Shown: positions 1 to 24,547 of the stretch, piece after piece | Numbering within the stretch: position 1 is the stretch's first letter | Layout of the letters: each line of letters starts with the position of its first letter | Origin: a virus | Lineage: Duplodnaviria; Heunggongvirae; Uroviricota; Caudoviricetes | Direction: 5' to 3' (one strand) | IMG/VR virus record: IMGVR_UViG_3300036771_000024 | Coordinates: 1 to 55,391 of that record | DNA length: 55,391 nucleotides | Program-made: the position numbers and the translations under genes | Notes under the pieces: generated by a model | The model's database searches: none | Told to the model about the DNA's origin: nothing | What the model saw: only the letters and a program-made list of their open reading frames with translations

Positions 1-92
1 CGTCCTTTATTCCTTCCTTTCCTGGTGCTGGTGCGGGGGTGCGGCCCCGGGCTGGGACGGCCTGGTGGCACCCGGGGCCGCACGTCTTAGGG

Positions 93-332
93 TTACTCGG
101 TGAGGTTGGTTATCTTCTCTGCCATGATGACTGAGTACACCGCGTAGATGACCGCGACGACAGCAGCAATGATCCAGCTCTCGTCTATGCAGTAGCCGAG
201 GAACAAGCCGAAACCTGTCATCCCCGTACAGGCCGCGTGACCCCCCACCTGGAGGTGGCGCCACGTGCGGAGCGCACCTGTCGTGGTGTTCCTCGCACGG
301 ACCGGCCATGTGTGGTTCTCTGAGCTGGACAT
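93..332 (-). CDS. small membrane protein
   Basis: ATG overlaps upstream stop (TAACCATG); hydrophobic C-terminal half GFGLFLGY...WIIAAVVAVIYAVYSVIM. Confidence 0.6.
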   Translation of the reverse strand: MSSSENHTWPVRARNTTTGALRTWRHLQVGGHAACTGMTGFGLFLGYCIDESWIIAAVVAVIYAVYSVIMAEKITNLTE

Positions 333-334
333 GG

Positions 335-457
335 TTACCTCTTGTTCTTGTACCGCTTCCAGCATTTACCGCACAGGCCGCGGTGCAGGTCCAGCCACAG
401 CTGGCCACATTTCGCCTGGCAGTTGTGACATTTCCCGCGTAGCCCTAGCATGCCCAT
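335..457 (-). CDS. 40-aa Cys-rich (CxxC...CxxC) protein, not in ORF track
   Basis: Read manually: MGMLGLRGKCHNCQAKCGQLWLDLHRGLCGKCWKRYKNKR*, preceded by AGGAGG RBS. Confidence 0.55.
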   Translation of the reverse strand: MGMLGLRGKCHNCQAKCGQLWLDLHRGLCGKCWKRYKNKR

Positions 458-572
458 CGCTAACCTCCTATCCTCTGTTTAGGGTGCTCACACAGTGCCC
501 GGTGGGGGCGCATCAGGTTGCCGGTGCGGAACTGCACCCACGAATACCTGCACCGCCAGCACCACAGGATCG

Positions 573-911
573 TCATGACACGCCCATCCACGTGAGCATG
601 TCGAGCAGGCCCGTGAGCCTGTCTGATGCTTCGGACACCGAACCGGACGGGTGCGGGCTGAAATCACCCAGCAGGGCTGCTTCGGTGATGACGCGCAGGT
701 CCTCCCTGGCCTGGTGGATCATGACCGTCCACGCCACAGGTATCGTGCCCTCCGGTGGTCCACCCTCTTCGAGGGCGGTCAGGAGTTTCAGCTCGTTGCT
801 CGCAGCGTTCACCTCCTGGGCCCGTTGCAGGCGGCCCTCGCGGCGGGTGGAGTCCAGCAGGTGCTTGCGTATGCTGCGGACCCTCTCTTCACGTTCCTTC
901 GCGGATAGCAT
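573..911 (-). CDS. hypothetical phage protein
   Basis: 112-aa ORF, tightly packed in leftward gene run. Confidence 0.6.
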   Translation of the reverse strand: MLSAKEREERVRSIRKHLLDSTRREGRLQRAQEVNAASNELKLLTALEEGGPPEGTIPVAWTVMIHQAREDLRVITEAALLGDFSPHPSGSVSEASDRLTGLLDMLTWMGVS

Positions 912-914
912 CAG

Positions 915-1115
915 CTACGCTTTCCGTATCGCGATGGCTTCCGGCGTTTCCACCGGGATAACGATCCACCCGCGGCCCTGCATCGGACCGCTGCGGTAGC
1001 CCGCTTTCGCGAACGCACCAGCGGCTTCCTTTGACGCGAACCCGCCTTCCGGTGCGATAGCCTCCCAGCGTGGCGGCTGGGCCATCTTGTCAGGCTTGTA
1101 CACAATCACGTACAT
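915..1115 (-). CDS. hypothetical phage protein
   Basis: AAGGAGG RBS upstream of ATG. Confidence 0.65.
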   Translation of the reverse strand: MYVIVYKPDKMAQPPRWEAIAPEGGFASKEAAGAFAKAGYRSGPMQGRGWIVIPVETPEAIAIRKA

Positions 1116-1228
1116 GTCTGTACCTCCTTCCTGGTGTGGTGCAGGGCGATGCGCCTAGTTTGGCTCGATGTCGTTTACTGGCGTATGCACAAGATGCACA
1201 TTCTTGGTTATCCTGCCAGCGGACCCTG

Positions 1229-1325
1229 CGGTATGCGTGTGTTGCGGCATACCGGGAGCCGCCCATCCTCGTTTCACGTCACACCGGAGGTGGGACAGGA
1301 TGGGCGGCTCCCCGCTTGCCGCAGC
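1229..1325 (-). ncRNA. repeated structured intergenic element, copy 1 of 4
   Basis: GCTGCGGCA-A-GCGG-[15-bp perfect stem]-CGGT-A-TGCCGC-AACACAC-GCATACCG, 4 nt after TAA of 1330..1713. Confidence 0.7.
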
Positions 1326-1329
1326 GAAG

Positions 1330-1713
1330 TTACGGGAGTGGCAGCGCCATGCGCACCAGGAATACCAGCATGACCACCACGTAGGGTGCGACGAACATCA
1401 CCGTAGCGGCGACGACAATACGGGCGAGCACCGGCAGCACCCAGTCCCACGCGCTGACCTGGTACACCGGTTGCGGTTCAGGGATCCGGGCTACGCACTG
1501 CTCGATCAGGTCGAGCATCGCTGCCACAGTCGGCGTGACCAGATTCTCCATCGTGTCCAGGTCACCCGTCCCGGCCGCTACCGCGTCCCGGGCGGTCGTG
1601 TAGGCACGGAACTGCTCCGACAGGGCTGAGAGCGGCACACCGGTATCGGTGGAGATCTGCGTGATATGCAGGAACAATTCCTCGTCAGCCATGACATCTT
1701 CCAGTTCCATCAC
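1330..1713 (-). CDS. membrane protein (C-terminal TM segment)
   Basis: Acidic N-terminus, hydrophobic WVLPVLARIVVAATVMFVAPYVVVMLVFLV; GGAGG RBS. Confidence 0.65.
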   Translation of the reverse strand: MMELEDVMADEELFLHITQISTDTGVPLSALSEQFRAYTTARDAVAAGTGDLDTMENLVTPTVAAMLDLIEQCVARIPEPQPVYQVSAWDWVLPVLARIVVAATVMFVAPYVVVMLVFLVRMALPLP

Positions 1714-1964
1714 TTCACCTCCTGTCCTGTCACGCGGAATGCGACGTACCGGTCGTTGATCCTGACGGCGGTCGGGGTGAGCCCCTTGTTGTACGCGGCC
1801 TGCCGCAGGGAATTCGCCAGCTGCCGCGATGTGACTACGTTGTAGTCCAGGCGGTCCACCTTGTACGGCCTGCCGTCCAGCAGGTGATCATATTTCCCGG
1901 GGCCGCCCCGGGAGCCGCCACGCTTGGGCGTGAACACCGACATGTCAGTTATGACCTCATCCAT
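1710..1964 (-). CDS. hypothetical small basic protein
   Basis: 84-aa ORF, GGAGGC RBS, overlaps next start. Confidence 0.6.
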   Translation of the reverse strand: MDEVITDMSVFTPKRGGSRGGPGKYDHLLDGRPYKVDRLDYNVVTSRQLANSLRQAAYNKGLTPTAVRINDRYVAFRVTGQEVK

Positions 1965-1976
1965 TTCAGCCTCCTC

Positions 1977-2186
1977 TCATGGTCTGCTACTGAGATGCCA
2001 GTAGCCGCATTCAGCCGGGTACGCCCGGCGCGGGTGGTAGTCCTTGTCAGGCCCGGACACGTTCGTCGCGTACCCGGCCAGCGCGTTGATCGCTGCCTTA
2101 CGGGTGCGGAACATCTCCTTGCCATGCGGTTCGCAGCGTGGCCGCGCATGCCTGTTGCCACGCGGCCTCCTGTTACGGTGCGGCAT
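1977..2186 (-). CDS. small phage protein of RAYxCxxCGxWHLTS-like type
   Basis: C-terminal RRAYPAECGYWHLSS motif resembles a common actinophage family. Confidence 0.5.
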   Translation of the reverse strand: MPHRNRRPRGNRHARPRCEPHGKEMFRTRKAAINALAGYATNVSGPDKDYHPRRAYPAECGYWHLSSRP

Positions 2187-2395
2187 CTGGTACCGCCTCG
2201 CAGTCACGGTGTATGTTGGCCCACTCGACCAGTTCCGCCAGGTCGGCCACATGGTCAGCGACTCCGGCACCATACTCCGCGATGTGACCCACCGGGCAGG
2301 TGATACGCACCTGCTCGACGTATTCCAGCATCTCGTCATTCCATCCGGCGACGTGGAATTTGTCACGCTGGACCGGCTGGTACATGATCATCACC

Positions 2396-2686
2396 TCATT
2401 TCTTCCTGCGTGGGTCCTTCTTCTTCTCTGGACCCCAGTACCACTTCCTGCGTGGTTCCTTCGGGTACTCCTTGCCGTGCTTCGGGCTTGGCGTACCCTT
2501 CTTCACACCGCCCCTGCCTTTCAGGGGTCCGCGCTGTTTGGCTTCCAGCTTTTCCTTACGGTGCTTCCCGTCGTCAGGGCAGATGTACTTCCACCCGCGC
2601 CCGCGCTTGAACGCGGACATCTTCTTACCGCACCCCTTCTCGGGGCAGAACTTGACGGGTGCCTGCTCAGGAGGCTTTTTCGACAT
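2396..2686 (-). CDS. Lys-rich basic protein with putative Zn site
   Basis: CPEKGC...ICPDDGKH plus very Lys/Arg-rich tail. Confidence 0.55.
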   Translation of the reverse strand: MSKKPPEQAPVKFCPEKGCGKKMSAFKRGRGWKYICPDDGKHRKEKLEAKQRGPLKGRGGVKKGTPSPKHGKEYPKEPRRKWYWGPEKKKDPRRKK

Positions 2687-2874
2687 GATTCTTCTTCCGG
2701 ATCGTCATGTTGTTCCGTGCAAAATCATCCGACGCGGCCACATACATGATGCCCGTGTATGACGTGACGTTCGCGTGGACCAGATCCTCGCTGAACCAGC
2801 CACAACCATTAGATTCCGTGGTCCACACACACCCGTCGCGCCACTCGGTGACACGAAACTGCTCCATGTACACC

Positions 2875-3447
2875 TCATACACCGGAATGCTCCTTATCCC
2901 ACGTGATCAGCGCGCGGGGGTCACCGACAGGACCGCACCGCAGGCAGTACCACAACTGGCCGGGCTGACGCCTGCGCCTGCGGTGCGGGTGACCGCCCCG
3001 GCACGTGCCCACCAGGGGCTTCTTGATTTCCTTCTCGCCAGCTTCCCCCCACAACCGGGTGGGCCTGGCACCGAGGATGCGGCACCAGCCCCGCCAGGTC
3101 GTGTCGTGCCCGTGGTCGGGGCACATGATGTGGGCGATCTCATGCAGGATCGTGTCACGCGCCTGCCCCGGGGTCCACAGTGACATCAGCGGCCCGGACA
3201 GCGTGAGCGTACCAGGCTCACCGTCCCACACACCGTCGTCGTTCTTGGTGTACCTGACGGAAGCGGACAGGTCCCTGGCACCGCCGATGCGGAGTCTCCA
3301 GTCTGACACGCCATGCTCCGCCATAAGTTCCATGCACAGACGCCACGCGTACTCGATGTTGTACGCGTCACCTCCCGCCTCGGTGGCCCATTTCTGCCAC
3401 TGAGGTGAGATGTACACGTTGGGGTCCTGGCGGGGGTCAAGCATCAC
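2875..3447 (-). CDS. SprT-like zinc metalloprotease domain protein
   Basis: TILHEIAH (HExxH) followed by HGHDTTWRGWCRILGA and C-terminal C..H / CLRC Zn ligands, the SprT signature. Confidence 0.8.
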   Translation of the reverse strand: MMLDPRQDPNVYISPQWQKWATEAGGDAYNIEYAWRLCMELMAEHGVSDWRLRIGGARDLSASVRYTKNDDGVWDGEPGTLTLSGPLMSLWTPGQARDTILHEIAHIMCPDHGHDTTWRGWCRILGARPTRLWGEAGEKEIKKPLVGTCRGGHPHRRRRRQPGQLWYCLRCGPVGDPRALITWDKEHSGV

Positions 3448-3888
3448 GCACCACCTGGTCCAGCGCGGCGGCCAGGATCGGCTGCCGCTCTTTCAGCAGG
3501 TCACGCACGTACCGGCAGTTCTCATCCGAGTACCGCCGACGGATACCCTCCGAAACTTCGAGGAGTGTCCGCGCCTGCTCGCGGCGGTCCGGCATCTCAT
3601 GCCGGTACAGGATCCACCAGCCGAACGGGTTCCCGACCACGGTAATCATCGGGACTGCCTCTCCGCTGCCAGGTCCCGGAGCAGTTCCGCCTCGGTGACC
3701 AGCAGGCCGTGTGCGATGTAATGCTCGTCTTCCAGGTCACCGACCGTCTTGTCCTCCACCCACCGGGCGTACCGCTCGGGGTGCTTCTCGGCCACGTGCA
3801 CAGCCAGCGGTGCGTTCACCTCGGGACTGTGCGGCTTGTACGCGTACGACTCGACGTGTGCCAGCCTGGATTCCAGGTCCTCATTCAT
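3437..3888 (-). CDS. two small hypothetical proteins (3437..3649, 3646..3888)
   Basis: Overlapping start/stop codons; GAGGAGG RBS before 3888. Confidence 0.55.
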
Positions 3889-3916
3889 CGTTGCCTCCTC
3901 TCACGTGTTGCTCGGT

Positions 3917-3990
3917 GGTCTCGCACGATGCGGCAGACCGCAGGCCACCCCAGCCCCCGCAGGTTGGGGTGGCCCACCGCGTGCCGCAGC
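3917..3990 (-). ncRNA. repeated structured intergenic element, copy 2 of 4
   Basis: GCTGCGGCA-C-GCGG-[12-bp stem]-CGGT-C-TGCCGC-ATCGT-GCGAGACC, 4 nt after TAA of 3995..4492. Confidence 0.7.
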
Positions 3991-3994
3991 GGTA

Positions 3995-4492
3995 TTACCT
4001 GTCGCCGGCCGCCCAGGATTCCAGGGAGAACATCCACCCGCGCCTGTTGCGTGGCCTGCGGCTGATCCACGCTTTCATGCCGTCCAGCTCGGTGATGAAC
4101 TGCTCGTAGCTGATCACCGCGTCGGGACCGGGGAACACCTGTGGCTTCTCATGCGTGGTCGGGTGCGTGGTGCACATCCGGGAACCGTCGAACATCCCGG
4201 AACCACCACCATCGCAGCGTTCCACCATGTGCCACGCGACGATGCCCAGCGGGCCGTCCGGGGTCCCCTCGAACGAGTGGTCCACCTCGGTGACCACACC
4301 GGGACGCAGATCATAGTCCCACACCAGCAGGCCCACCGTGATCTCGACACCATCAGCGGTGTACCGCCCGTTGATCGGCGGCAGGCAATCCCCGTGACCG
4401 TTCAGGACCTGCTTCTCAGGGTTCGCCCTGCATTCCTCGCAGGACCTTCGCCATGGCTGCCGCTCCGGCAGCCACCGCTCTGTGGTGCTCAT
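3995..4492 (-). CDS. hypothetical phage protein
   Basis: 165-aa ORF with CxxC near N-terminus; AGGA RBS. Confidence 0.6.
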   Translation of the reverse strand: MSTTERWLPERQPWRRSCEECRANPEKQVLNGHGDCLPPINGRYTADGVEITVGLLVWDYDLRPGVVTEVDHSFEGTPDGPLGIVAWHMVERCDGGGSGMFDGSRMCTTHPTTHEKPQVFPGPDAVISYEQFITELDGMKAWISRRPRNRRGWMFSLESWAAGDR

Positions 4493-4743
4493 GGCCTGTC
4501 CTTCCTCATGATTCCGTCTGCGCAGTCACGGCAGACACGCACGTCGGTGGCCTGGTTCATGTCGGTCCGGACCTGATGCGTCACGGGTGAACCGCACCGG
4601 CACATCAGCTCCGCGTCGACCAGGACATTGGTGAACATGATGTTCTGCCTGAGTCGCTGGTCATGGGTCTGCCCGACCCGCTCCATCGGGGGTCCTATGT
4701 GCTGGCCGCCGTACCAGAGCCGGGATGTGGTCATGACGGCCAC
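4489..4743 (-). CDS. small Cys-containing protein
   Basis: CRCG...CRDC; overlaps neighbours by 4-13 nt. Confidence 0.55.
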   Translation of the reverse strand: MAVMTTSRLWYGGQHIGPPMERVGQTHDQRLRQNIMFTNVLVDAELMCRCGSPVTHQVRTDMNQATDVRVCRDCADGIMRKDRP

Positions 4744-4991
4744 CTGAACAGGCGGAACCTGGTGCTGTTAACAGCGCACACCCAGTCGCTCCCGTCGTTG
4801 CGGATGACATCACCGGGGACCACGATCTCCCCGGTGGCCGGGTCGGTGCATTCTGGCACCGGCCTGGTCACCGTGTAGTTGTACGATGCCTCATGCCCGG
4901 CCGGGTTACCGGCCAGGACTCCCGCACCGGGACCTGCCATGGTCCAGGCGGCAGCCGCTATCGCTGCGGCCGGGACTATTGCCAGCATCAT
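4731..4991 (-). CDS. putative secreted small protein
   Basis: Signal-peptide-like MMLAIVPAAAIAAAAWTMAG; GGAGGAG RBS. Confidence 0.6.
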   Translation of the reverse strand: MMLAIVPAAAIAAAAWTMAGPGAGVLAGNPAGHEASYNYTVTRPVPECTDPATGEIVVPGDVIRNDGSDWVCAVNSTRFRLFRWPS

Positions 4992-5269
4992 GTCTCCTCC
5001 TTCTTCTGTTGAACTGGTCCACCGCTATCTGCGGTGTGAGCCACGATGACAGCAGCCATATGAGCGTGAACGCCCACGTCACTGCTCGCGCCGGGTCATC
5101 AGCGTGCCACGCATAATGTGGTCACCCTGGACGTGCTCGGTCACTGCCATGGAGATCCACACGCGCACGTCATGCCAGATCACGCGGTGGAATTCCCTGC
5201 CGTTGAACCAGACCTTTATCACGGTCCTCTTGTCCTTCACCGTCTCCACCTCCTCTGTGTGTCGTCCGG

Positions 5270-5343
5270 GGTCTGCCGCCACGGCAGACCGCAGAACACC
5301 GGCACCACCTTGAGGTGGTGCCGGTGTCCCGCCGCGTGCCGGG
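5270..5343 (-). ncRNA. repeated structured intergenic element, copy 3 of 4
   Basis: CCCGGCA-C-GCGG-[18-bp stem, TCAA loop]-CGGT-C-TGCCG-TGG-CGGCAGACC. Confidence 0.7.
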
Positions 5344-5368
5344 TGACGCTAGTTTCAGGTGTTTCTGG

Positions 5369-5695
5369 TCACCTCACGTTGACGTAGTTGAGGTGGTTCC
5401 ACCGCTGGGCGAACTCGCCCTGCTCGGTGTCGGCGTTCCCTGGTGCCAGGGAGTCCACGCTGCCGAACGACCACTTGCCGTCAGCAGGGAACCGGATCGT
5501 CACGGTCCACTTGCCGTGGGGCGGCACGATCACGTTCCGGTCGCCCCACGCGTACAGGTGCCCGTGGTAGAGGTTGATGCCGGGGTCCCACTCGCCGTAG
5601 CTGGTCTCGTTGGTCACGGTGAACCTGTACGTGTCGTCTCGCACGTAGCTGACTGCCACCATGTCGACCGGGGGTGGCGGGCTGATGAACATCAT
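5369..5695 (-). CDS. hypothetical phage protein
   Basis: ATG at 5695 with AGGAAGG RBS preferred over GTG 5758, which lies inside the RNA element. Confidence 0.55.
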   Translation of the reverse strand: MMFISPPPPVDMVAVSYVRDDTYRFTVTNETSYGEWDPGINLYHGHLYAWGDRNVIVPPHGKWTVTIRFPADGKWSFGSVDSLAPGNADTEQGEFAQRWNHLNYVNVR

Positions 5696-5722
5696 GATCC
5701 GGGGTCCTTCCTGTGAGGGTAT

Positions 5723-5802
5723 GACCTGCCCATACGGCAGACCGCGGGACACCCGCACCGCTCAACGCGAGTAGTGCGTGCGGGTGCCCCGCCGCGTGCC
5801 GC
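5723..5802 (-). ncRNA. repeated structured intergenic element, copy 4 of 4
   Basis: GCGGCA-C-GCGG-[14-bp stem]-CGGT-C-TGCCGT-ATG-GGCAGGTC. Confidence 0.7.
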
Positions 5803-5854
5803 CCGGGGTGCTATGTGCTGACATCCGCACCGCGCGGTACGATCATCGCGGGGT

Positions 5855-7130
5855 CTATCGTGTGCTGTACATGTCCCACCGGTACCAGTCGCGGCAGATA
5901 CCGGTGATGTGACCGCGCACGGGCTGACCCTGGTATGTGTGCACCACGATCGTCGGGACGATCCTGGTGGACACGATGTGGAACGCGCCGTTGAACCACA
6001 CGTACCTGACTTGCGGCGCGACCGCCATGTGGACCACCAGCTCGGGGTCGCCCTGGACTACGCCATCGTCGCGCAGGTGAGTCACCGTCGGTGGCCCGTC
6101 ATATACCGGGTCGAACGGGTCCCACGCGGGGTCACTGAAACTCATGACTGTACCTCCTGTGTCTGGGTTCTGCGTGCCAGTTCGGTGGTGATCATGCCCA
6201 GCAGGATCTTCACGTCGGCCCGCTGCTCGGGGTCCGTGTACACGGCGTACTCGGGCTTCAGCATGTACGTGAGCTGCTGGTGCTCCCGGTGGAGCATGGC
6301 CACGTCCACGGTCCGCAGCCTGGCCCTGATGGCGCGGCGTCTCAGCGCCGCGTGACGCACCCGGTTGGCTACCACGATCCACCCTGCGTCCGCCCTGGCG
6401 TAGTCACGCTGGAGCTGCTCACGTGCCCTGCGGACCGTCGCACGGTACTTATCCCGTGCGTCCGCCCTGGCCACGCGGCGTTCCAGCGCGGCGTAATCTA
6501 GTGTCTTGTCCATGTCACACCAGCCATTCAACGAGCGAACGGACCGCTGCCCGCCTGGCTTCCGGTGTGGTGGCCGCGTCCAGCGCGGCCATGAGCTGGT
6601 CGGTGTACCCGTCCACCTCTTCTTCGTGGATCTGCTCCAGGCTTTTCACCTTGGCCGCCATCACGCACGCCCCCAGCCCAGGATGTGATACCGGAACCCG
6701 TGACCCTTGCACTTACAGATCGCCTGGTGCAGCCGGGGGTTCTTCCGGGAGCTGATGTAGTGACGCACCCGCATTTTCACAGGACTTCACCGGTGTCCTG
6801 CCACGCCCACACGCTGCCAGCGTAGGTGCGTGCGACGGGGGTTCCGTCAGCGAGCCTGCCGGTGAACGTGACGCCGCTGCCGTCAATCTCCCAGCCGTCA
6901 CCCCACCGGGACAGGTGCTCGGTCCACGTGGCCTGCCCCACAACCGGGACCCACGCGTACCTGTGTTTCACCGGGAAGCACCCGGCCCGCTCGGCCACTG
7001 TCGTGACGATGCGCAGCATCGCGCTGCGGATCTCACGTCGGCTGTCCAGCCTGGACTCCAGCACCAGCCAGCCGTGCAGCTCCTGGTACCGCGCCACCAG
7101 TTCCTCGGTGGTCATGCTCGGGAAATCCAT
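5855..7130 (-). CDS. run of small hypothetical proteins (5855..6145, 6142..6513, 6515..6661, 6777..7130)
   Basis: Abutting/overlapping ORFs with GGAGG-type RBSs. Confidence 0.55.
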
Positions 7131-7192
7131 GGGTAATCACTCCTTCCGTCCTGCTAATCGGGACTGTGCGCACCTACGTACACACACCAAAA

Positions 7193-7233
7193 CGGCCACG
7201 CCCGCACCCCCTCTCGGGGGTGCGGTGTGGCCG
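7193..7233 (-). terminator. intrinsic terminator
   Basis: Minus strand: CGGCCAC-A-CCGCACCCCC-GAGA-GGGGGTGCGG-GC-GTGGCCG followed by TTTT, downstream of 7269..7718. Confidence 0.7.
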
Positions 7234-7268
7234 CATGGTGGAGGAACGTCGGTGTTCCTGCCGGGGTG

Positions 7269-7718
7269 CTACTTGGAGGACTTGGCGGTCTCGGCCGGCT
7301 TGTTCTCCTGCGTGGCCGCGTGCGGCGCGTACCATGCGCCCATCTCGTGGCGCTTGCCGTCCTGCGCACCCGCCATGGAGATGCTCGGCGTGTTGGACAG
7401 GCCCACCAGCATGGGGACCAGCTGCGTCTCCATGCGCACCAGCGCCTGCGCGGGGTCCTCGCGGTAGGACTCCACCCAGTTCTGGACCACGGCACCAGCA
7501 GCCGCGTACAGCGCCTGCGTGGCGTTCCGCTCGGTGACGCCATCGGGCATCGTCCCACGCGCGTTGGTCCGCTTCCGGTCCTCCTTGGCCTTGTTCGCCT
7601 TGGCGACCCGCTCGTCGTCCTTGGCCTTGAGCGCCAGGAGCTGCTTGAGCAGCTCACCGTCCAGCGTGGCGGTGGTGCCGTCAGCGGTGGTGATGGTCTG
7701 CGCGGTGTTCTCGGACAT
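7269..7718 (-). CDS. hypothetical protein with coiled-coil segment
   Basis: 149-aa ORF, AGGAGG RBS. Confidence 0.65.
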   Translation of the reverse strand: MSENTAQTITTADGTTATLDGELLKQLLALKAKDDERVAKANKAKEDRKRTNARGTMPDGVTERNATQALYAAAGAVVQNWVESYREDPAQALVRMETQLVPMLVGLSNTPSISMAGAQDGKRHEMGAWYAPHAATQENKPAETAKSSK

Positions 7719-7815
7719 GATTCCTCCTGAGAGGCTTACTGCCGCACCTCGGTATCACTGTGGGATACCTAGCTAGGTGCGGCGCTGACAATCCTGATGA
7801 TTGGCCAGCATCCCC

Positions 7816-7841
7816 GCACCCATACCGGACGGTATGGGTGC
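7816..7841 (-). terminator. GC-rich hairpin, probable terminator
   Basis: Perfect 11-bp GCACCCATACC/GGTATGGGTGC with 4-nt loop just after stop at 7860. Confidence 0.55.
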
Positions 7842-7859
7842 CGGGAAACAGGTAGATCA

Positions 7860-9826
7860 TCACAGCTCAGCCACGGGCACGTCGGTGTTGCACTGGTCAC
7901 AGTGCATGTAGTCCACGTCGGGTTGCGCGAACACGCCCGGGTGCATGCACCCGTGATCCTGCGTGGCCCTGAGTAGCGCGTTGCGCCACTCCTGGACCTG
8001 AACCCACGCGCCCGCCAGGGAAACGCTGGTGCTGTACTGCTCCAGCCACGTGAGCATGTCCACGATCACGTCAGCGACTGTCGTGTCGTCCTCCACGTCA
8101 GCCACCGGGATACGCGGGTTGTTCTTGTTACGCTCCCAGTACGCCCGGGACTCCTCATGCTGGTGCGCGATCTCAGCGTTGAACAGGTCAATCGCGCGTG
8201 TTGCGTCGGTCATAACTCCTCCTTCCGTTCGGTGTTCCGTTGCCGTACCTCTTGTGATACGCCACCATGGCGAGCACCCCTGCCGGGGTGCCACCATGAC
8301 TGGAATGTCACTCACCTGCTGAACAGCCACCGTGCGAACAGGACTATCGCCAGGACAACCACGGCGTACCCTGCCACGATCAGCCACGCCACCTGGTCGG
8401 GAGTCACGTCACACGCACCACGATGCGTAGCGTCCCAGCGTGCCGTCACCCATGACGTACACCAGGTCGAACTCACGGAGCCGCTTGGGTGCCACCCGGT
8501 TAACCTCACGTAGCTCGGCCACGGCCTGCTCGTAATCCATGCGCATATCCGGTATCTCTTCCACGTCACACTCAGACGTGTAACGCACGATCGCTACTTG
8601 CATCGCTGGTCCTCTCACCACTCGATAATGTTGGCTGGCCGACCGTACCCGGCGGGTACAACCGTCAGCAACGTGTCACATGCTGCGTGGCGGGTACGCA
8701 GGGCGAACCTGCCCTTGACCGTGCCACGTAGCGGGTAGGGTGCGCGTGAGACCATATGCTCAATCTCCACGCGTCGCGCCCACCATTTATCCAGCTTGTC
8801 AGGCTTGTTATCCACGCTCCACGCAGCGGTGTCACGGGACACGCGGACCTGTGTTTCAAGCTGGTCGCTGATCTCGTCAGGCGTAGCCTTACGGTAGTCA
8901 CCGATGCTATGGTCCCAGACCACCCGGTACGGGAACACCCGAGTATCGTCATCAGCGGGCACCGTGTTGTCTGCCACGCTGTACCGTGGCACGGTGAACC
9001 CGCCAGACTCCACGCTGTACGCCACCACCGACTCACTCATGATCGGCGCACCTCCACACACAGGATCACCAGCGCGTCACCCGTGGAATCACGGCCGACC
9101 CACTGGCAGTCAGGGCACCCGTACGCATGATCGCGTTCGCTGCGTGCCAGATGACGCAGCGAACGCTTACGGGCAGGCATCACGGGAGTCACCGTGCCGG
9201 TATCCAGCACTGTGCACGCGCGTACCATTCCAGGTTCCGCGTGCCAAACAGACCGATAGCGCGTGTCCACGCTGCCGATATGTGGTGATGCTGGCAGCTA
9301 CCTAGCGTCGCGTTGCAACGCGGACACGTTGGGACGGCAGGCAATGACGCCACAAACGGGACGTATGCGTGAGGCTCAACAGCCATGGGTAACTCACCCC
9401 TTCCGTAAGATCGCTGGGACGATTGGCGAAACGTACCAATCTGGCAACTGCCACGGGATACCGTGGCAGTCACCACACTGGGACGTGTCACGCAGCGTTG
9501 GTCTTGCGCGTGCGCTTGACGCCGCGAACGCTGGGCGTGATCTTGCTGAATCGCCACGTAACCATGGCGTTGTTCGCGCCGCTGCGCTTCACGACGCAGC
9601 TACGGTTGTTCTCTTTGGCGTACTGGCGGATCTGCCGCTCGTAGAGATCAGCGGCGACCGTCGTGCCCATGTTCTGCGGCACGTACGTCGTGTTGGGAAC
9701 GCTGGCGAACGCGATCACGGCCTTTGCGAACGTGGCGCGCAGATCAGCAGGTATCTCTACCGTGCTGCTCTTGACGGTTGTGACGCCAAAGAGGGCGTCT
9801 AGGCTGATGGCTGGTGACTGAGACAT
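7860..9826 (-). CDS. run of hypothetical proteins (7860..8213, 8409..8603, 8615..9040, 9189..9389, 9488..9826)
   Basis: Each with a plausible RBS; leftward run ending at the non-coding block. Confidence 0.55.
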
Positions 9827-9971
9827 GGTGATCCTCCGTGCTGCTGAGCGGACGTGAAACTACCCTCAGTCTATACTATGCGTGTTTATGCAGGTCACAG
9901 CGTTGCGCCACCAGGTAGGCCGACTACTCTCCGTCACATCTGTCCGTTATGTCCGATTCCACTATCACGCA

Positions 9972-9989
9972 CAGTCATAATTATGACTG
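9972..9989. repeat. perfect 18-bp palindrome CAGTCATAATTATGACTG
   Basis: Self-reverse-complementary, read directly. Confidence 0.9.
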
Positions 9990-10176
9990 CCTGCCACTAC
10001 CTAGCCACCCTACGCACACTCTGAACAGTCATTTAAACGACAGTCAACCTATGATGCCAGTGTTAGCTATGTCCGTTTTATCGTTACCATCCTGTGACCT
10101 TGCGCATAGCGCACACACGTACGCATAGCGCACATGTAGTCCACCCCAGTCGACCCCAACCATCCATGCCCACCCA

Positions 10177-10497
10177 CGACCATGGTCGACTACCCTCCAC
10201 ACACACCCACCACCCCAGGTAGGCCAGCTACGCTCAGTTACCACCCTGCCCCACTCCCACCCACTCTGACCTGCGACGATCACGCTCAGTGACCATCCCC
10301 AGACTGTCTTGACGTCAAGACATTAGCCAGACTAGTTAGCCGCGCTAACGATTTCAGCCACGAACTAGACCATGGTCACAGGACCTACGACGATGGTCGA
10401 CCACACGACCACCCTCGACCACACGACCACCCACACCACCCCCCAACCATGGTCGACTACCCCCAACCACCCCCGACCATGGACGAGGGTGGTCGAC
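10177..10497 (+). repeat. about six imperfect copies of (C)GACCATGGTCGAC
   Basis: Copies at 10177, 10368, 10388, 10446, 10474, 10490. Confidence 0.85.
10305..10322. repeat. perfect 18-bp palindrome TGTCTTGACGTCAAGACA
   Basis: Self-reverse-complementary, read directly. Confidence 0.9.
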
Positions 10498-10795
10498 TGT
10501 TTTTTGAGTGAAATTTTCACCCGACGTCCCTCGCTTGCTTTTCTCTCCCCGCGTGAAAATCCGCGGCTCCCCCTGCACCGCACAACACCGCCCACCTGCG
10601 GTGATGCTGGTGGGCGGTGCGGCGGTGCGGCTCATTTTTTATGTCGTCTTAGATATTTGCGGATGCTGAGCTTTCGTGCTTGCGCGGTGTATCTGGGGTC
10701 TTGGTCGCATACCCAGCTTCCTTTGACGCGGCGGATTCCCTTGTGTCCGCGTGACCTGCCGCAGTATGGGCAGGATGTGGACTGGTCAGGCATCT

Positions 10796-11455
10796 TTATG
10801 ACTCCGGTGGGGTCCAGCCCTGTTCTATCAGGACTGAGGTTAGTTTGCGGCTTCCCCAGGTGCGCCGCCTTGATTCCGGTATCCGGTTGCTGCCACCTGC
10901 TAGGTTGCCGATTCGCGGTTCGGAGTAGGAGCTGCCTGGCGGGAGGTCTAGCTTAGGTATGGTGTGTGATGCAGAGATTGAGATGGGGCGCACACCCTGG
11001 TGGCGCACCTTCTTGTCGGGGTGAGCTTCCTGGTACGCACTGATGACCTGGGAACTGAGAGTGCCGGTGCGGTAGGTCGTGCCGGAGAATTCGTCCTGGG
11101 TTGCTGCCCAGTCCCGGACTTCCTTGATCGATGCTTCGGTCGCTGGCCTGCGGCTGCGCTTCTGGAATACGAGCCTGGCGCGGATGTGCAACGGCAGTCG
11201 CGGTTTGATGCCATTGTCGAAGCTGAGGAGTGCCGCGGCGGCGTCTGGTGGTGTCCTGTAGATCAGCCGTTCGCCTGTCGCGGGGTTTGTGAACCTTATG
11301 TAGTCGGAGTCCGCGATGGGGTTGGAGCGTGGCCCGTACTTGGCCTTTAGCGCTTGGGCGATCATGCAGCGTGCCGAGTGGTTCCGGCCTTCGATGGCGC
11401 GATCGAAGGCCGCTTCGTCTACTGTCAGGTTGAGATAGGTAGTGCCTTTTGACAT
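10796..11455 (-). CDS. hypothetical protein
   Basis: 219-aa ORF, AAGGA RBS. Confidence 0.65.
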   Translation of the reverse strand: MSKGTTYLNLTVDEAAFDRAIEGRNHSARCMIAQALKAKYGPRSNPIADSDYIRFTNPATGERLIYRTPPDAAAALLSFDNGIKPRLPLHIRARLVFQKRSRRPATEASIKEVRDWAATQDEFSGTTYRTGTLSSQVISAYQEAHPDKKVRHQGVRPISISASHTIPKLDLPPGSSYSEPRIGNLAGGSNRIPESRRRTWGSRKLTSVLIEQGWTPPES

Positions 11456-11479
11456 CCTTTTTCCTTAGAATGGCCTAAC

Positions 11480-11521
11480 GTTGTACCTCTAGTGTAGCAT
11501 ACTCTACGCTAGAGGTACAAC
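11480..11521. promoter_or_regulatory. inverted repeat, possible operator
   Basis: GTTGTACCTCTAG-TGTAG-CATACT-CTACG-CTAGAGGTACAAC; 13-bp perfect arms. Confidence 0.5.
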
Positions 11522-11927
11522 TTGGCTGGTCACAGGTCGCGTAGGCACCGGAATGTCTCGCATCGTTCGCAGGCGCAGACGGTGGCTGAGCGGCATGTGG
11601 TGCACCACCAGTATGGTTCTGCGTGTCCTTCTCGGCGTTTCAGCGGGTTTTGGCATTTCCAGCAGGTTTCTGGGGTGTGGTGGAGGTCCGGGCTAGTTCT
11701 GGCCAGGTCAGGGGGCTCTACTGGGGTTTCAGGCACTCCTGGGGCCTTTCACGGGGTGTACCCTCCGTTTAGGTGGTTGTTCGTGGAGGCGGTGCCGGGC
11801 GAGCATGAACCAGGGGTCATCGGATGCGGCGGCGAACCAGAACGCGGTGCGCGAGCCGAGTTCGAGGGCGTCGGTCTCGAACTGGACTGTCCTGATGTAT
11901 TCAGTCATGGTGGTGTATAACGGGGTT

Positions 11928-12473
11928 GTGAGGGTGCTGGTCGCGTGTGAGTTCAGCGGTCGTGTCCGTGATGCTTTCGCACGCCGTGGTCATGACGCGT
12001 GGTCGGTGGACCTGCTGCCGAGCGAGCGACCGGGGCAGCACCGGTGTGAGGATGTGCGTTCCGTGCTGGGTGACGGCTGGGATCTGATGGTGGCGTTCCC
12101 GCCGTGTACGTACCTGTGCCGGAGCGGGGCACGGTGGTATTCGGGTTCGCCGATGCAGGCGGAGGCGCTGGAGTTCGTCCGTGTGCTGCTGGGCGCACCG
12201 GTGCCGAGGATATGCTTGGAGAACCCTATCGGGGCGATCAGCAGCAAGATACGTAAGCCTGACCAGATCGTGGAGCCGTATTTTTTCGGTGAGGATTACC
12301 GGAAGGCGACGTGCCTGTGGCTGAAGGGCCTGCCTGAGCTGGAGGCGACGTGCCTGGTGCGTATCAGGCAGTGGAACAAGGTCAGGGATGCGGAGAACAC
12401 GCCGGACCGGTGGAAGGAGCGGTCCCGCACCGTGCAGGGCATGGCTGATGCCATGGCTGACCAGTGGGGTTAG
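11928..12473 (+). CDS. short C5-cytosine DNA methyltransferase-like protein
   Basis: VLVACEFSG (motif I variant), AFPPC (IV), ENP (VI), KATCLWLKGLP, RSRTVQGMADAMADQWG (X); GTG start chosen over 11805. Confidence 0.75.
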   Translation: MRVLVACEFSGRVRDAFARRGHDAWSVDLLPSERPGQHRCEDVRSVLGDGWDLMVAFPPCTYLCRSGARWYSGSPMQAEALEFVRVLLGAPVPRICLENPIGAISSKIRKPDQIVEPYFFGEDYRKATCLWLKGLPELEATCLVRIRQWNKVRDAENTPDRWKERSRTVQGMADAMADQWG

Positions 12474-24473: not shown

Positions 24474-24547
24474 CGCGGGGTGGAACAGTTCGGTAGTTCG
24501 CTGGGCTCATAACCCAGAGGTCGCGGGTTCAAGTCCCGCCCCCGCTA
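24474..24547 (+). tRNA. tRNA-Met(CAT), initiator type; CCA not encoded
   Basis: CGCGGGG/CCCCGCT acceptor with C1:U72 mismatch, CTGGG-CTCATAA-CCCAG arm with three G-C pairs, GCGGG-TTCAAGT-CCCGC T-arm. Confidence 0.93.

Follow-up and report, generated by a model that had tools for sequence, protein, structure and literature searches.

A repeated intercistronic RNA element with two mutually exclusive helices in four lineages of uncultured phages

Among the closest described systems to the element examined here are the RNase III signals of T7 early mRNA, R0.3, R0.5 and R1.1 among them (Dunn & Studier 1983, cited by PMC3867540). A helix of two turns (about 22 bp) is the substrate size of RNase III, and mismatches at the target site can yield single-strand cuts that leave stabilising 3' hairpins (PMC3867540). 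Repeated intergenic hairpins are also found in the PeSL cassettes of T4-type phages, which contain an early promoter of the host type (PMC2839356, PMC4122927).

In the present study we analysed a stretch of DNA of 55,391 nucleotides (the window, numbered from its first letter) from the caudovirus record IMGVR_UViG_3300036771_000024, which belongs to an uncultured phage, presumably of actinobacteria, and in which an element with paired arms recurs between clusters of small early genes. A preliminary description of this DNA had offered four options, namely an RNase III-type processing site, an antitermination signal, a site for a phage RNA-binding regulator or a new small ribozyme. We find that the element is a real structured cis-acting RNA with two mutually exclusive helices, and among these options its anatomy favours RNase III-type processing and stability.

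Copies of the element in four phages

A pattern search of the whole 119,391-bp genome found the arm pairs CGGCAMGCGG ... CGGTMTGCCG four times, all on the minus strand (Table 1), and the exact paired arrangement nowhere else, in agreement with the preliminary description. Single exact arms, with one mismatch allowed, are not above chance (23 versus 16 expected, and 32 versus 24 expected). Each copy folds as one long hairpin of -52 to -62 kcal/mol, with z scores of -3.3 to -6.8 against dinucleotide shuffles; for copy 4 the core alone reaches -48.5 kcal/mol and the flanked sequence -57.5 kcal/mol (z = -4.2).

Table 1 Coordinates of the four copies and adjoining features in the window (SD, Shine-Dalgarno sequence)
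Feature	Position	Strand	Details
Copy 4 long hairpin	5735..5801	-	5' arm 5801-5792; variable stem and loop 5791-5745; 3' arm 5744-5735
Copy 4 box C	5723..5730	-	GGCAGGTC; pairs with 3' arm bases 5743-5736; 5-nt loop
Start after copy 4	5695	-	SD GGAAGG after box C, then ATG
Copy 3 long hairpin	5282..5341	-	5' arm 5341-5332; 19-bp stem, 4-nt loop; 3' arm 5291-5282
Copy 3 box C	5270..5278	-	CGGCAGACC; 9-bp perfect alternative hairpin with 3' arm
Start after copy 3	5240	-	SD AGGAGG after box C, then GTG
Gene upstream of copy 2	3995..4492		TAA stop 8 nt ahead of 5' arm
Copy 2 long hairpin	3931..3986	-	5' arm 3986-3977; 3' arm 3940-3931
Copy 2 box C	3917..3924	-	GCGAGACC; 7 bp and one bulge with 3' arm
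Start after copy 2	3888	-	SD AGGAGG after box C, then ATG
Gene upstream of copy 1	1330..1713		TAA stop 8 nt ahead of 5' arm
Copy 1 long hairpin	1245..1321	-	5' arm 1321-1312 (M = A); 3' arm 1254-1245 (M = A)
Copy 1 box C	1230..1236	-	GCATACC; 7 bp with 3' arm; M position A-U

A covariance model of the kind suggested in the preliminary description retrieved ten further copies in three related uncultured phages, with compensatory changes in both helices, bringing the family to 14 copies in four phage lineages; the same type of search returned no copies from about 4 Mb of more distant relatives. The copies in the window score 84.9 (copy 4, model R1), 76.2 (copy 3), 79.6 (copy 2) and 74.6 bits (copy 1). 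Copy 4 has an orthologue in phage P4 (L341:3388), copy 2 has orthologues in phages G002 (2790) and P4 (L341:5285) whose stems differ by compensatory changes, and the basal stem of copy 1 is common to G002:5842 and P4 L341:6490. The relatives were located through the terminase, a SprT alignment and an alignment of gene g5, whereas single flanking orphan proteins used as queries in IMG/VR gave no matches, nor did a megablast of the region against GenBank phages. Strain contigs of P4 (L342-L350) are >99.9% identical and collinear, and yield no cassette variants. The exact arm pattern has 19 further matches in IMG/VR and at least 119 in JGI metagenomes, all stemless and apparently due to chance; the P4 contigs are not among the metagenome matches listed.

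No known RNA family was recognised when the element was initially described, and Rfam bears this out. The sole match at the gathering threshold is a tRNA at 24474, E-value mode over positions 1100-6000 gave two sub-threshold matches on the plus strand, away from the elements, and nothing else was returned from the remaining genome or from G002:1-20000.

Two competing helices

Covariation was measured by pair-change counts over structure columns and by comparison with shuffles. Over the 14 copies of the long hairpin 97.5% of cells are paired, as expected from the earlier claim that the inner stems differ yet stay paired, and 12 of the 20 pairs have changed on both sides. None of 500 shuffles matches this pairing, partners slid out of place pair at only 35-54%, and the stems of orthologous copies differ by compensatory changes. 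The variable stem comprises 12-19 bp over all copies and 13-19 bp in the four in the window, for which 12-18 bp had been given; the first inner-stem pair, reported as G-C, U-G, C-G and C-G, is in fact G-C in all four. Including the base, the coaxial helix amounts to 21-28 bp-equivalents in every one of the 14 copies.

Beneath the stem lies a base of invariant order, consisting of CGGCA/UGCCG (5 bp), a 1x1 mismatch, a G.U and a C-G pair, a G.G mismatch and then the variable stem. The preliminary description had correctly placed a symmetric mismatch here (C/C in three copies, A/A in one), but had overlooked the conserved G.G mismatch and the G.U pair. The outer helix does not vary among the 14 copies and is thus supported by complementarity and conservation, not by covariation. 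The identity of the M/M mismatch does vary (C.C, A.A, A.G, C.A and G.A); that this position is always mismatched is uninformative, since U occurs on neither side and only about 1.6 pairs in 14 would be expected by chance. All 14 copies are co-oriented with the genes, the sense strand has 18 G.U pairs where only four A/C mismatches are seen, and in seven of ten copies it also gives the more stable fold.

The 3' arm has another partner, box C, with which it pairs within the next 20 nt in all 14 copies. The proposal of a downstream hairpin in which M covaries, made from four copies, extends to the whole family, with M forming C-G in seven copies, A-U in six and G.U in one, followed by U-A, U.G or C-G. 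Box C of copy 4 forms 8 bp, two of them G.U, and in copy 3 the alternative hairpin is used in the minimum-energy fold of the flanked sequence. Complementarity between 3' arm and box C exceeds a genomic null over all copies (Fisher p = 5e-8) and when only the worst member from each of eight orthologous groups is counted (p = 4e-4), with individual values of p = 0.002 for copy 3 and p = 0.003 for copy 1. This duplex test replaced one based on the minimum free energy of the whole segment, which was not significant against real genomic windows (Fisher p = 0.29), because GC-rich coding windows fold by themselves. G.U pairs in the second helix exist on the sense strand only and would be A/C mismatches in the other DNA strand, and in G002 it is the sense strand alone that folds into the alternative hairpins (-9 to -16 versus -3 to -9 kcal/mol). 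A DNA operator is unlikely given that the second helix forms no DNA palindrome in G002.

The long-hairpin conformer is more stable by 2-8 kcal/mol in 13 of the 14 copies. The original notion of a switchable RNA, sound as regards two exclusive helices, must be qualified accordingly, and the small hairpin should form only after the 5' arm has been cut away or occupied. In the conformer that has the small hairpin, the two hairpins abut.

Genomic setting and candidate functions

A nearby stop codon and ribosome-binding site had been described, and both recur across the family: a stop codon lies 6-11 nt upstream of the 5' arm in at least nine of 14 copies, a start codon 21-46 nt downstream of the 3' arm in 13 of 14, and box C 1-18 nt ahead of the SD, which in one P4 copy is inside the loop of the alternative hairpin. 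The distance to the next start codon leaves no space for a promoter; by direct reading there is no TANNNT-like box between 3' arm and SD, and a promoter scan of positions 1-12000 gave two sites, a number below that in shuffles, and neither is on the minus strand. Pfam and PHROGs recognise only a SprT-like metalloprotease among ten flanking proteins. Neither a phage-encoded RNase III nor a sigma-70 region 2 was found, and the search for a T7-type RNA polymerase also returned nothing, a weak negative in that the control was likewise without any match.

Based on this anatomy, we tentatively favour, as a possible though not yet probable reading, a T7-like intercistronic processing and stability module of a polycistronic early mRNA read from the minus strand; host RNase III would cut it, and the small hairpin would cap the message downstream. 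Before any cut, the 5' and 3' arms would close a coaxial helix of 22-28 bp, with a sequence-free stem on top and the fixed motif at its base. A double-strand-specific endonuclease would read this helix, most likely the RNase III of the host, which is proposed because no RNase III gene was found in the phage; the base mismatches may restrict or position the cut, like internal loops in T7 early mRNA. The long hairpin would stay on the upstream message and shield its 3' end. Released from the 5' arm, the 3' arm would switch to box C, and the downstream message would now begin with a flush hairpin, closely followed by a spacer rich in A and C, a strong SD and then the start codon. We infer the cleavage, the enzyme and the protective roles alike. 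The hairpin is intercistronic and has the T7-type size of at least about 22 bp (two A-helical turns), and between its lower and upper stem lie two conserved 1x1 mismatches flanking G.U and C-G, smaller than the T7 bubble. An enzyme that reads structure alone would not require the 5' arm to be so strictly conserved, which may indicate that the reader is specific for sequence. To our knowledge, the targets of actinobacterial RNase III are poorly defined, with no sequence rules described, and hardly any work has addressed how actinobacterial phages derive individually tuned messages from long early transcripts.

Several other readings were weighed against processing. An uncut stabiliser or insulator could act as a translation-coupled switch, in which the terminating ribosome would open the weak outer helix and the 3' arm would flip to box C; the altered leader structure would change translation or decay of the next gene, depending on whether the upstream gene is translated. 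The regular spacing between stop codon and arm, an outer helix of just 5 bp beside a conserved mismatch, the closeness of box C to the SD and an energy difference of 2-8 kcal/mol between the two states all suit such a switch. We consider it rather unlikely, as 3' arm and box C are not complementary to the SD or start codon and so have no evident on/off effect on initiation, a helix spaced 6-8 nt from the stop codon would sit at the ribosome entrance and may stay closed, judging from the known footprint, and copy 1 stands 129 nt from the next start codon (ATG at 1115). A signal at the level of transcription, either a U-less factor-dependent terminator or attenuator that would grade expression along the operon, or a site of RNA polymerase modification by a phage RNA-binding protein or by the RNA itself (of the lambda nut or HK022 put type), is unlikely. 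It would accord with very stable, GC-rich, intergenic hairpins that recur along a single co-directional operon, and a strictly conserved base sequence fits a specific binding partner. However, a put or nut site is found a single time in an operon, close to the promoter, whereas the present copies repeat at gene junctions, and the three or four unrelated base sequences in one phage would require equally many specific factors. The alternative hairpin leaves the inner stem of 13-19 bp intact and hence cannot serve as an anti-terminator. A T-run (at least three T within 12 nt after the 3' arm) is present in none of the 14 copies and a terminator scan finds none here, yet a canonical hairpin with T-run lies at 7240-7180 in the same genome; the lack of a U-tract makes an ordinary terminator unlikely. 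Mycobacterial RNA polymerase requires a U-tract (PMC3993855), which also speaks against a transcription signal.

The four phages do not carry the same genes between orthologous elements, and several insertions or deletions abut an element exactly, namely g7-g8 after copy 2, g14-g15 before copy 1 and, between copies 4 and 3, g2 as against the g5 homologue; the SprT and g5 cassettes are in reversed order in G002 and P4. A hand count from the BLAST tables, which is no statistical test, places an element at about five of the seven differences that separate G000 from P4 in this region. Such a pattern would be expected of a DNA-level recombination site, with the arms as homology patches or as a folded single-strand site for cassette swaps, along the lines proposed for the PeSLs of T4-like phages or integron attC sites, and the RNA structure secondary. 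We regard this as very unlikely, given that the stems diverge by compensatory changes, which requires selection on pairing, and that the second helix is maintained through G.U pairs, for which the other DNA strand has A/C mismatches. As a side effect, cassette exchange at the arms would be compatible with the processing reading. Arms of 10 nt are moreover very short for homologous recombination, the indels g10 and g12 are not adjacent to an element, and no tyrosine recombinase (PF00589) was found in G000, G002 or G047, although all 14 control genomes have one. Were the element a new small ribozyme that cleaves itself, or the target of one acting in trans, the conserved non-Watson-Crick features of the base (G.U, G.G and the 1x1 mismatch) could be accounted for; this is extremely improbable, for the conserved core is a nearly regular helix of about 20 nt without junction or pseudoknot, the mismatch is free to change identity, and the Rfam searches of the element, the remaining genome and the first 20 kb of G002 matched no ribozyme.

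These phages hold other hairpin families of similar build. One, on the same strand in a neighbouring region at about 111-117.5 kb of the record and also in G002 and G047, is laid out as 5 bp, a 1x1 mismatch, 4 bp, a 1x1 mismatch, a long stem and a small hairpin. It shares with the present family the outer helix with two 1x1 mismatches, the long variable stem and the reuse of the 3' strand by the small hairpin, but has unrelated arms (CCTGCCAGG.../...CTTGCCAGG) and an AGGAG-like small-hairpin loop, and the covariance model of the present family does not pick it up. Another has a 4x4 internal loop between its lower and upper stems, and two or three of its four copies also possess a small hairpin. 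Several unrelated sequence families in one phage thus converge on one architecture, alongside which gene cassettes are exchanged. It is conceivable, if quite unlikely, that they form a general, undescribed punctuation grammar of at least three unrelated families, in each of which the mismatched base strand of a long hairpin finds another partner downstream, read not by housekeeping RNase III but by a dedicated factor (an orphan-gene phage nuclease or RNA-binding protein, or the RNA itself), each family being an independently addressable processing or regulatory channel.

Comparison with known systems

The motif, a fixed 20-nt base with a free stem and a second helix for its 3' strand, has strong comparative support and, if functional, would serve as a portable part for insulating and stabilising messages between cistrons in high-GC hosts. 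Like integron attC sites, the copies follow cassette ORFs and have conserved ends, a variable centre and unpaired positions when folded; unlike them they come with no integrase, pair in RNA fashion (G.U) on the sense strand and, by direct reading, have arms that do not fit the attC core RYYYAAC/GTTRRRY. With intrinsic terminators, including the proposed U-less actinobacterial type, they share a GC-rich hairpin soon after a stop codon, but no copy has a U-tract, the downstream genes are without promoters of their own, and terminators are not characterised by conserved mismatches or by a second helix. Closer parallels exist with PeSL, namely repeated short composite stem-loop motifs between small accessory genes in a plastic region and gene gain, loss and replacement beside the motif between related phages; here, however, there is no promoter-like site, the next start codon is only 21-46 nt away, and conservation falls on the hairpin base itself.

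The RNase III sites of T7 are likewise hairpins of about two helical turns between the cistrons of a long early transcript, with the lower part similar among sites and the top variable. An irregularity separates their lower from their upper helix, to which the mismatches of the present base may correspond. They differ in sequence and host phylum, which are unrelated, and in having an asymmetric bubble where the present base has two 1x1 mismatches. The conserved second downstream partner of the 3' strand also sets the present element apart, and we know of no such partner described for T7. Single-strand cutting at the T7 sites leaves a stabilising 3' hairpin (PMC3867540), an outcome that for the present element is a proposal only.

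Architecture and conservation of the family-1 hairpin

The family-1 arm pair occurs four times in the whole G000 genome (the full IMG/VR record), with no further occurrence beyond the minus-strand copies listed in the table. Every copy forms one long hairpin (fold -52 to -62 kcal/mol; z -3.3 to -6.8), and the preliminary description of a four-copy element was correct in all essentials, its coordinates and folds being confirmed. Read from 5' to 3', the outer helix comprises 5 bp (CGGCA/UGCCG). Inward of it the variable base M sits in a 1x1 mismatch, which one G.U and one C-G pair separate from a G.G mismatch; above this comes a GC-rich upper stem of 12-19 bp that is unlike in sequence from copy to copy. 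Directly 3' of the 3' arm, across a loop of 3-10 nt, lies box C, a GGCAGACC-like segment complementary to that arm, and beyond it an A/C-rich spacer, a strong SD and a start codon.

A structural alignment of 14 copies from G000 and its relatives has 97.5% of cells paired, with changes on both sides in 12 of 20 pairs (46 cells). None of 500 shuffles attained any of the pairing measures and sliding the partners lowered pairing to 35-54%, upholding the earlier claim that the inner stem covaries. Seven base pairs at the base are invariant apart from four mispaired cells, so the base is backed by conservation and complementarity, not covariation. Orthologous copies across phages agree in the base and over some of the stem, and differ by compensatory substitutions.

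The 3' arm can also pair with box C, and does so in all 14 copies when the 5' arm is kept single-stranded. Base M had been claimed to covary in this downstream hairpin, as is borne out across the copies (C-G in seven, A-U in six, G.U in one); the neighbouring base forms U-A, U.G or C-G. Complementarity, measured as the energy of the duplex that the 8-nt arm forms with the following 20 nt, was significant for all copies (Fisher p = 5e-8) and for the worst member from each of eight orthologous groups (p = 4e-4), while a whole-segment folding-energy test of the second hairpin against real genomic windows was non-significant (p = 0.29). In 13/14 copies the long hairpin is favoured over the alternative by 2-8 kcal/mol, so the small one should not form until the 5' arm has been cut away or is otherwise occupied. 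With the small hairpin formed, the two hairpins abut with zero gap.

Coordinates of features in the window, the full record (G000) and related phages (L225, L226 and L237, sequences among the relatives; L341, the contig of phage P4)
Feature	Location	Strand	Remarks
Family 1, CGGCAMGCGG ... CGGTMTGCCG	window 5801-5735, 5341-5282, 3986-3931, 1321-1245	minus	among co-directional small genes
Family 2, CCTGCCAGG-stem-CTTGCCAGG	G000 about 111,100-117,500 (outside window); L225:9766-15100; L237:8735-10560		plus small hairpin CTTGCC/GGCAAG
Family 3, GCCGCUGG-stem-GGAACGGC	L225:17645-17735; L226:2540-2640, 3962-4055; L237:16398-16480
Fourth recurring hairpin type	window 10551-10630; L225:8704, 18108; L237:5442	minus (window)	by eye; ends ...GGTGTTG(Y)GTGCCAGC before SD
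Protein with CRCG...C..C motif	window 4489-4743; L225:4846-5022; L237:4730-4930; L341:3475-3672	minus (window)	65-84 aa, conserved
Intrinsic terminator	window 7161-7240	minus	~20-bp hairpin with small bulge, then GTTTTGGTGTG
Inverted repeat	window 11480-11521		42 bp, near-perfect; arms 17-18 bp, short centre
Sub-threshold Rfam matches	window 4748-4955	plus	non-coding strand
Terminal genes of G000	window 93-911; G000 118,475-118,900	minus (window 93-911)	adjacent and collinear in P4 (L341:7102-8345)

Distribution and genomic setting

The G000 record comprises 119,391 bp with an estimated completeness of 97%, the window being its first 55,391 bp, and belongs to an uncultured phage whose terminase shares no more than about 36% identity with the terminases of Arthrobacter, Rhodococcus, Mycobacterium and Gordonia phages. 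In P4 the genes from the two ends of the record are neighbours and collinear; G000 is therefore circularly permuted, or else an almost closed genome, and is not truncated at this place. Exact-pattern scans of IMG/VR and metagenome contigs gave, among the matches listed, stem-less chance matches only, and relatives were reached via proteins. A terminase search led to related records including G002 (104 kb, terminase 83% identical), in which inspection of the whole record located five copies. Nine copies were used to build a covariance model, which on 49 related records matched only G000, G002 and, at a single site, G047 (99 kb), and had no match in 1.27 Mb of more distant phage loci carrying an SprT-like metalloprotease (SprT). 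The fourth lineage, P4 (45.9 kb, four copies), was reached by querying with the small protein adjoining the elements, which is probably a zinc finger. This protein was found in this phage clade only, in a search of 5.8 billion proteins, and in G002 and P4 forms a single-gene cassette with a family-1 element on either side. Family 1 is thus known from 14 copies, which are spread over four lineages within a single narrow clade. The contigs come from soils, JGI samples 3300024232, 3300047089 and 3300025929.

All 14 copies are co-directional with the genes; an upstream stop codon lies 6-11 nt 5' of the 5' arm in at least nine, and the next start codon 21-46 nt 3' of the 3' arm in 13. The preliminary description recognised no known family, and an Rfam search of the elements, the remaining genome and G002 likewise returned none matching the elements. 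Matches to ar35 (27.9 bits) and Scr2736 (26.5 bits) elsewhere in the window, both well under their gathering scores, are most likely due to chance. The inverted repeat at 11480-11521, AT-richer than its surroundings, could be an operator or origin-type site.

Other hairpin families of the same design

Family 2, present in G000, G002 and G047, is built on an outer helix interrupted by two 1x1 mismatches and topped by a long variable stem, and its 3' strand is used again in a small hairpin. It shares the two-mismatch base design of family 1 and lies directly downstream on the same strand; since P4 synteny spans both ends of the G000 record, the two families share one continuous early region. In family 3 a symmetric 4x4 internal loop separates a lower stem of 5-6 bp from a long upper stem, as is classical for T7 RNase III sites. 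Of the four copies, two or three carry a downstream small hairpin (GGAACG/CGUUCC) in which the 3' strand is used again.

Candidate functions

The reading we tentatively favour, at somewhat less than even probability, is that family 1 marks sites of mRNA processing and stabilisation like those of T7. Single-strand cuts by RNase III at mismatched target sites leave stabilising 3' hairpins (PMC3867540), and the family-1 helix, at least 22 bp long with target-site mismatches, fits known substrates of the enzyme (PMC3867540). Once freed, the 3' arm would pair with box C, giving the downstream message a hairpin at its 5' end. Under this processing model each helix would be used in turn, accounting for the conservation of both despite their mutual exclusion, and the model would also explain the slow evolution of the shared 3' strand. 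Neither RNase III nor a tyrosine recombinase or sigma-70 domain is encoded in the three large records (G000, G002, G047); searches found no T7-type polymerase, the control for that search being uninformative.

An uncleaved, translation-coupled switch is unlikely though not negligible. A transcription-level or protein-binding signal seems rather improbable. In our scan no promoter-like or terminator-like site coincides with an element. An ordinary terminator is unlikely, as a T-run is absent after all 14 copies and mycobacterial RNA polymerase requires a U-tract (PMC3993855); G000 does employ U-tract terminators elsewhere, as the canonical one at window 7240-7180 (minus strand) indicates. A DNA recombination site is doubtful. 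Gene content between orthologous elements varies among phages: between copies 4 and 3 there is one gene in G000 and a different one, a g5 homologue, in P4; insertions directly after copy 2 (g7-g8) and directly before copy 1 (g14-g15) are confined to G000; and the order of the SprT and g5 cassettes is reversed between G002 and P4. Part of the indels do not adjoin any element, and we regard exchange at the elements as a by-product rather than their main role. Family 1 contains 18 G.U pairs versus 4 A/C mismatches, and for seven of ten copies the better fold is that of the sense strand. The second helix of G002, with up to three G.U pairs (e.g. GGUAUGCC with GGUGUAUC), folds on the sense strand only and is thus not a DNA palindrome. 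A ribozyme we regard as very improbable.

The RNase III sites of T7 and the PeSLs of T4 are already familiar examples of hairpin punctuation between cistrons. New here are the family-1 sequence family itself, absent from Rfam, its fixed and doubly mismatched base, the covarying second partner of its 3' strand, and the recurrence of the same design in unrelated sequence families inside one phage.
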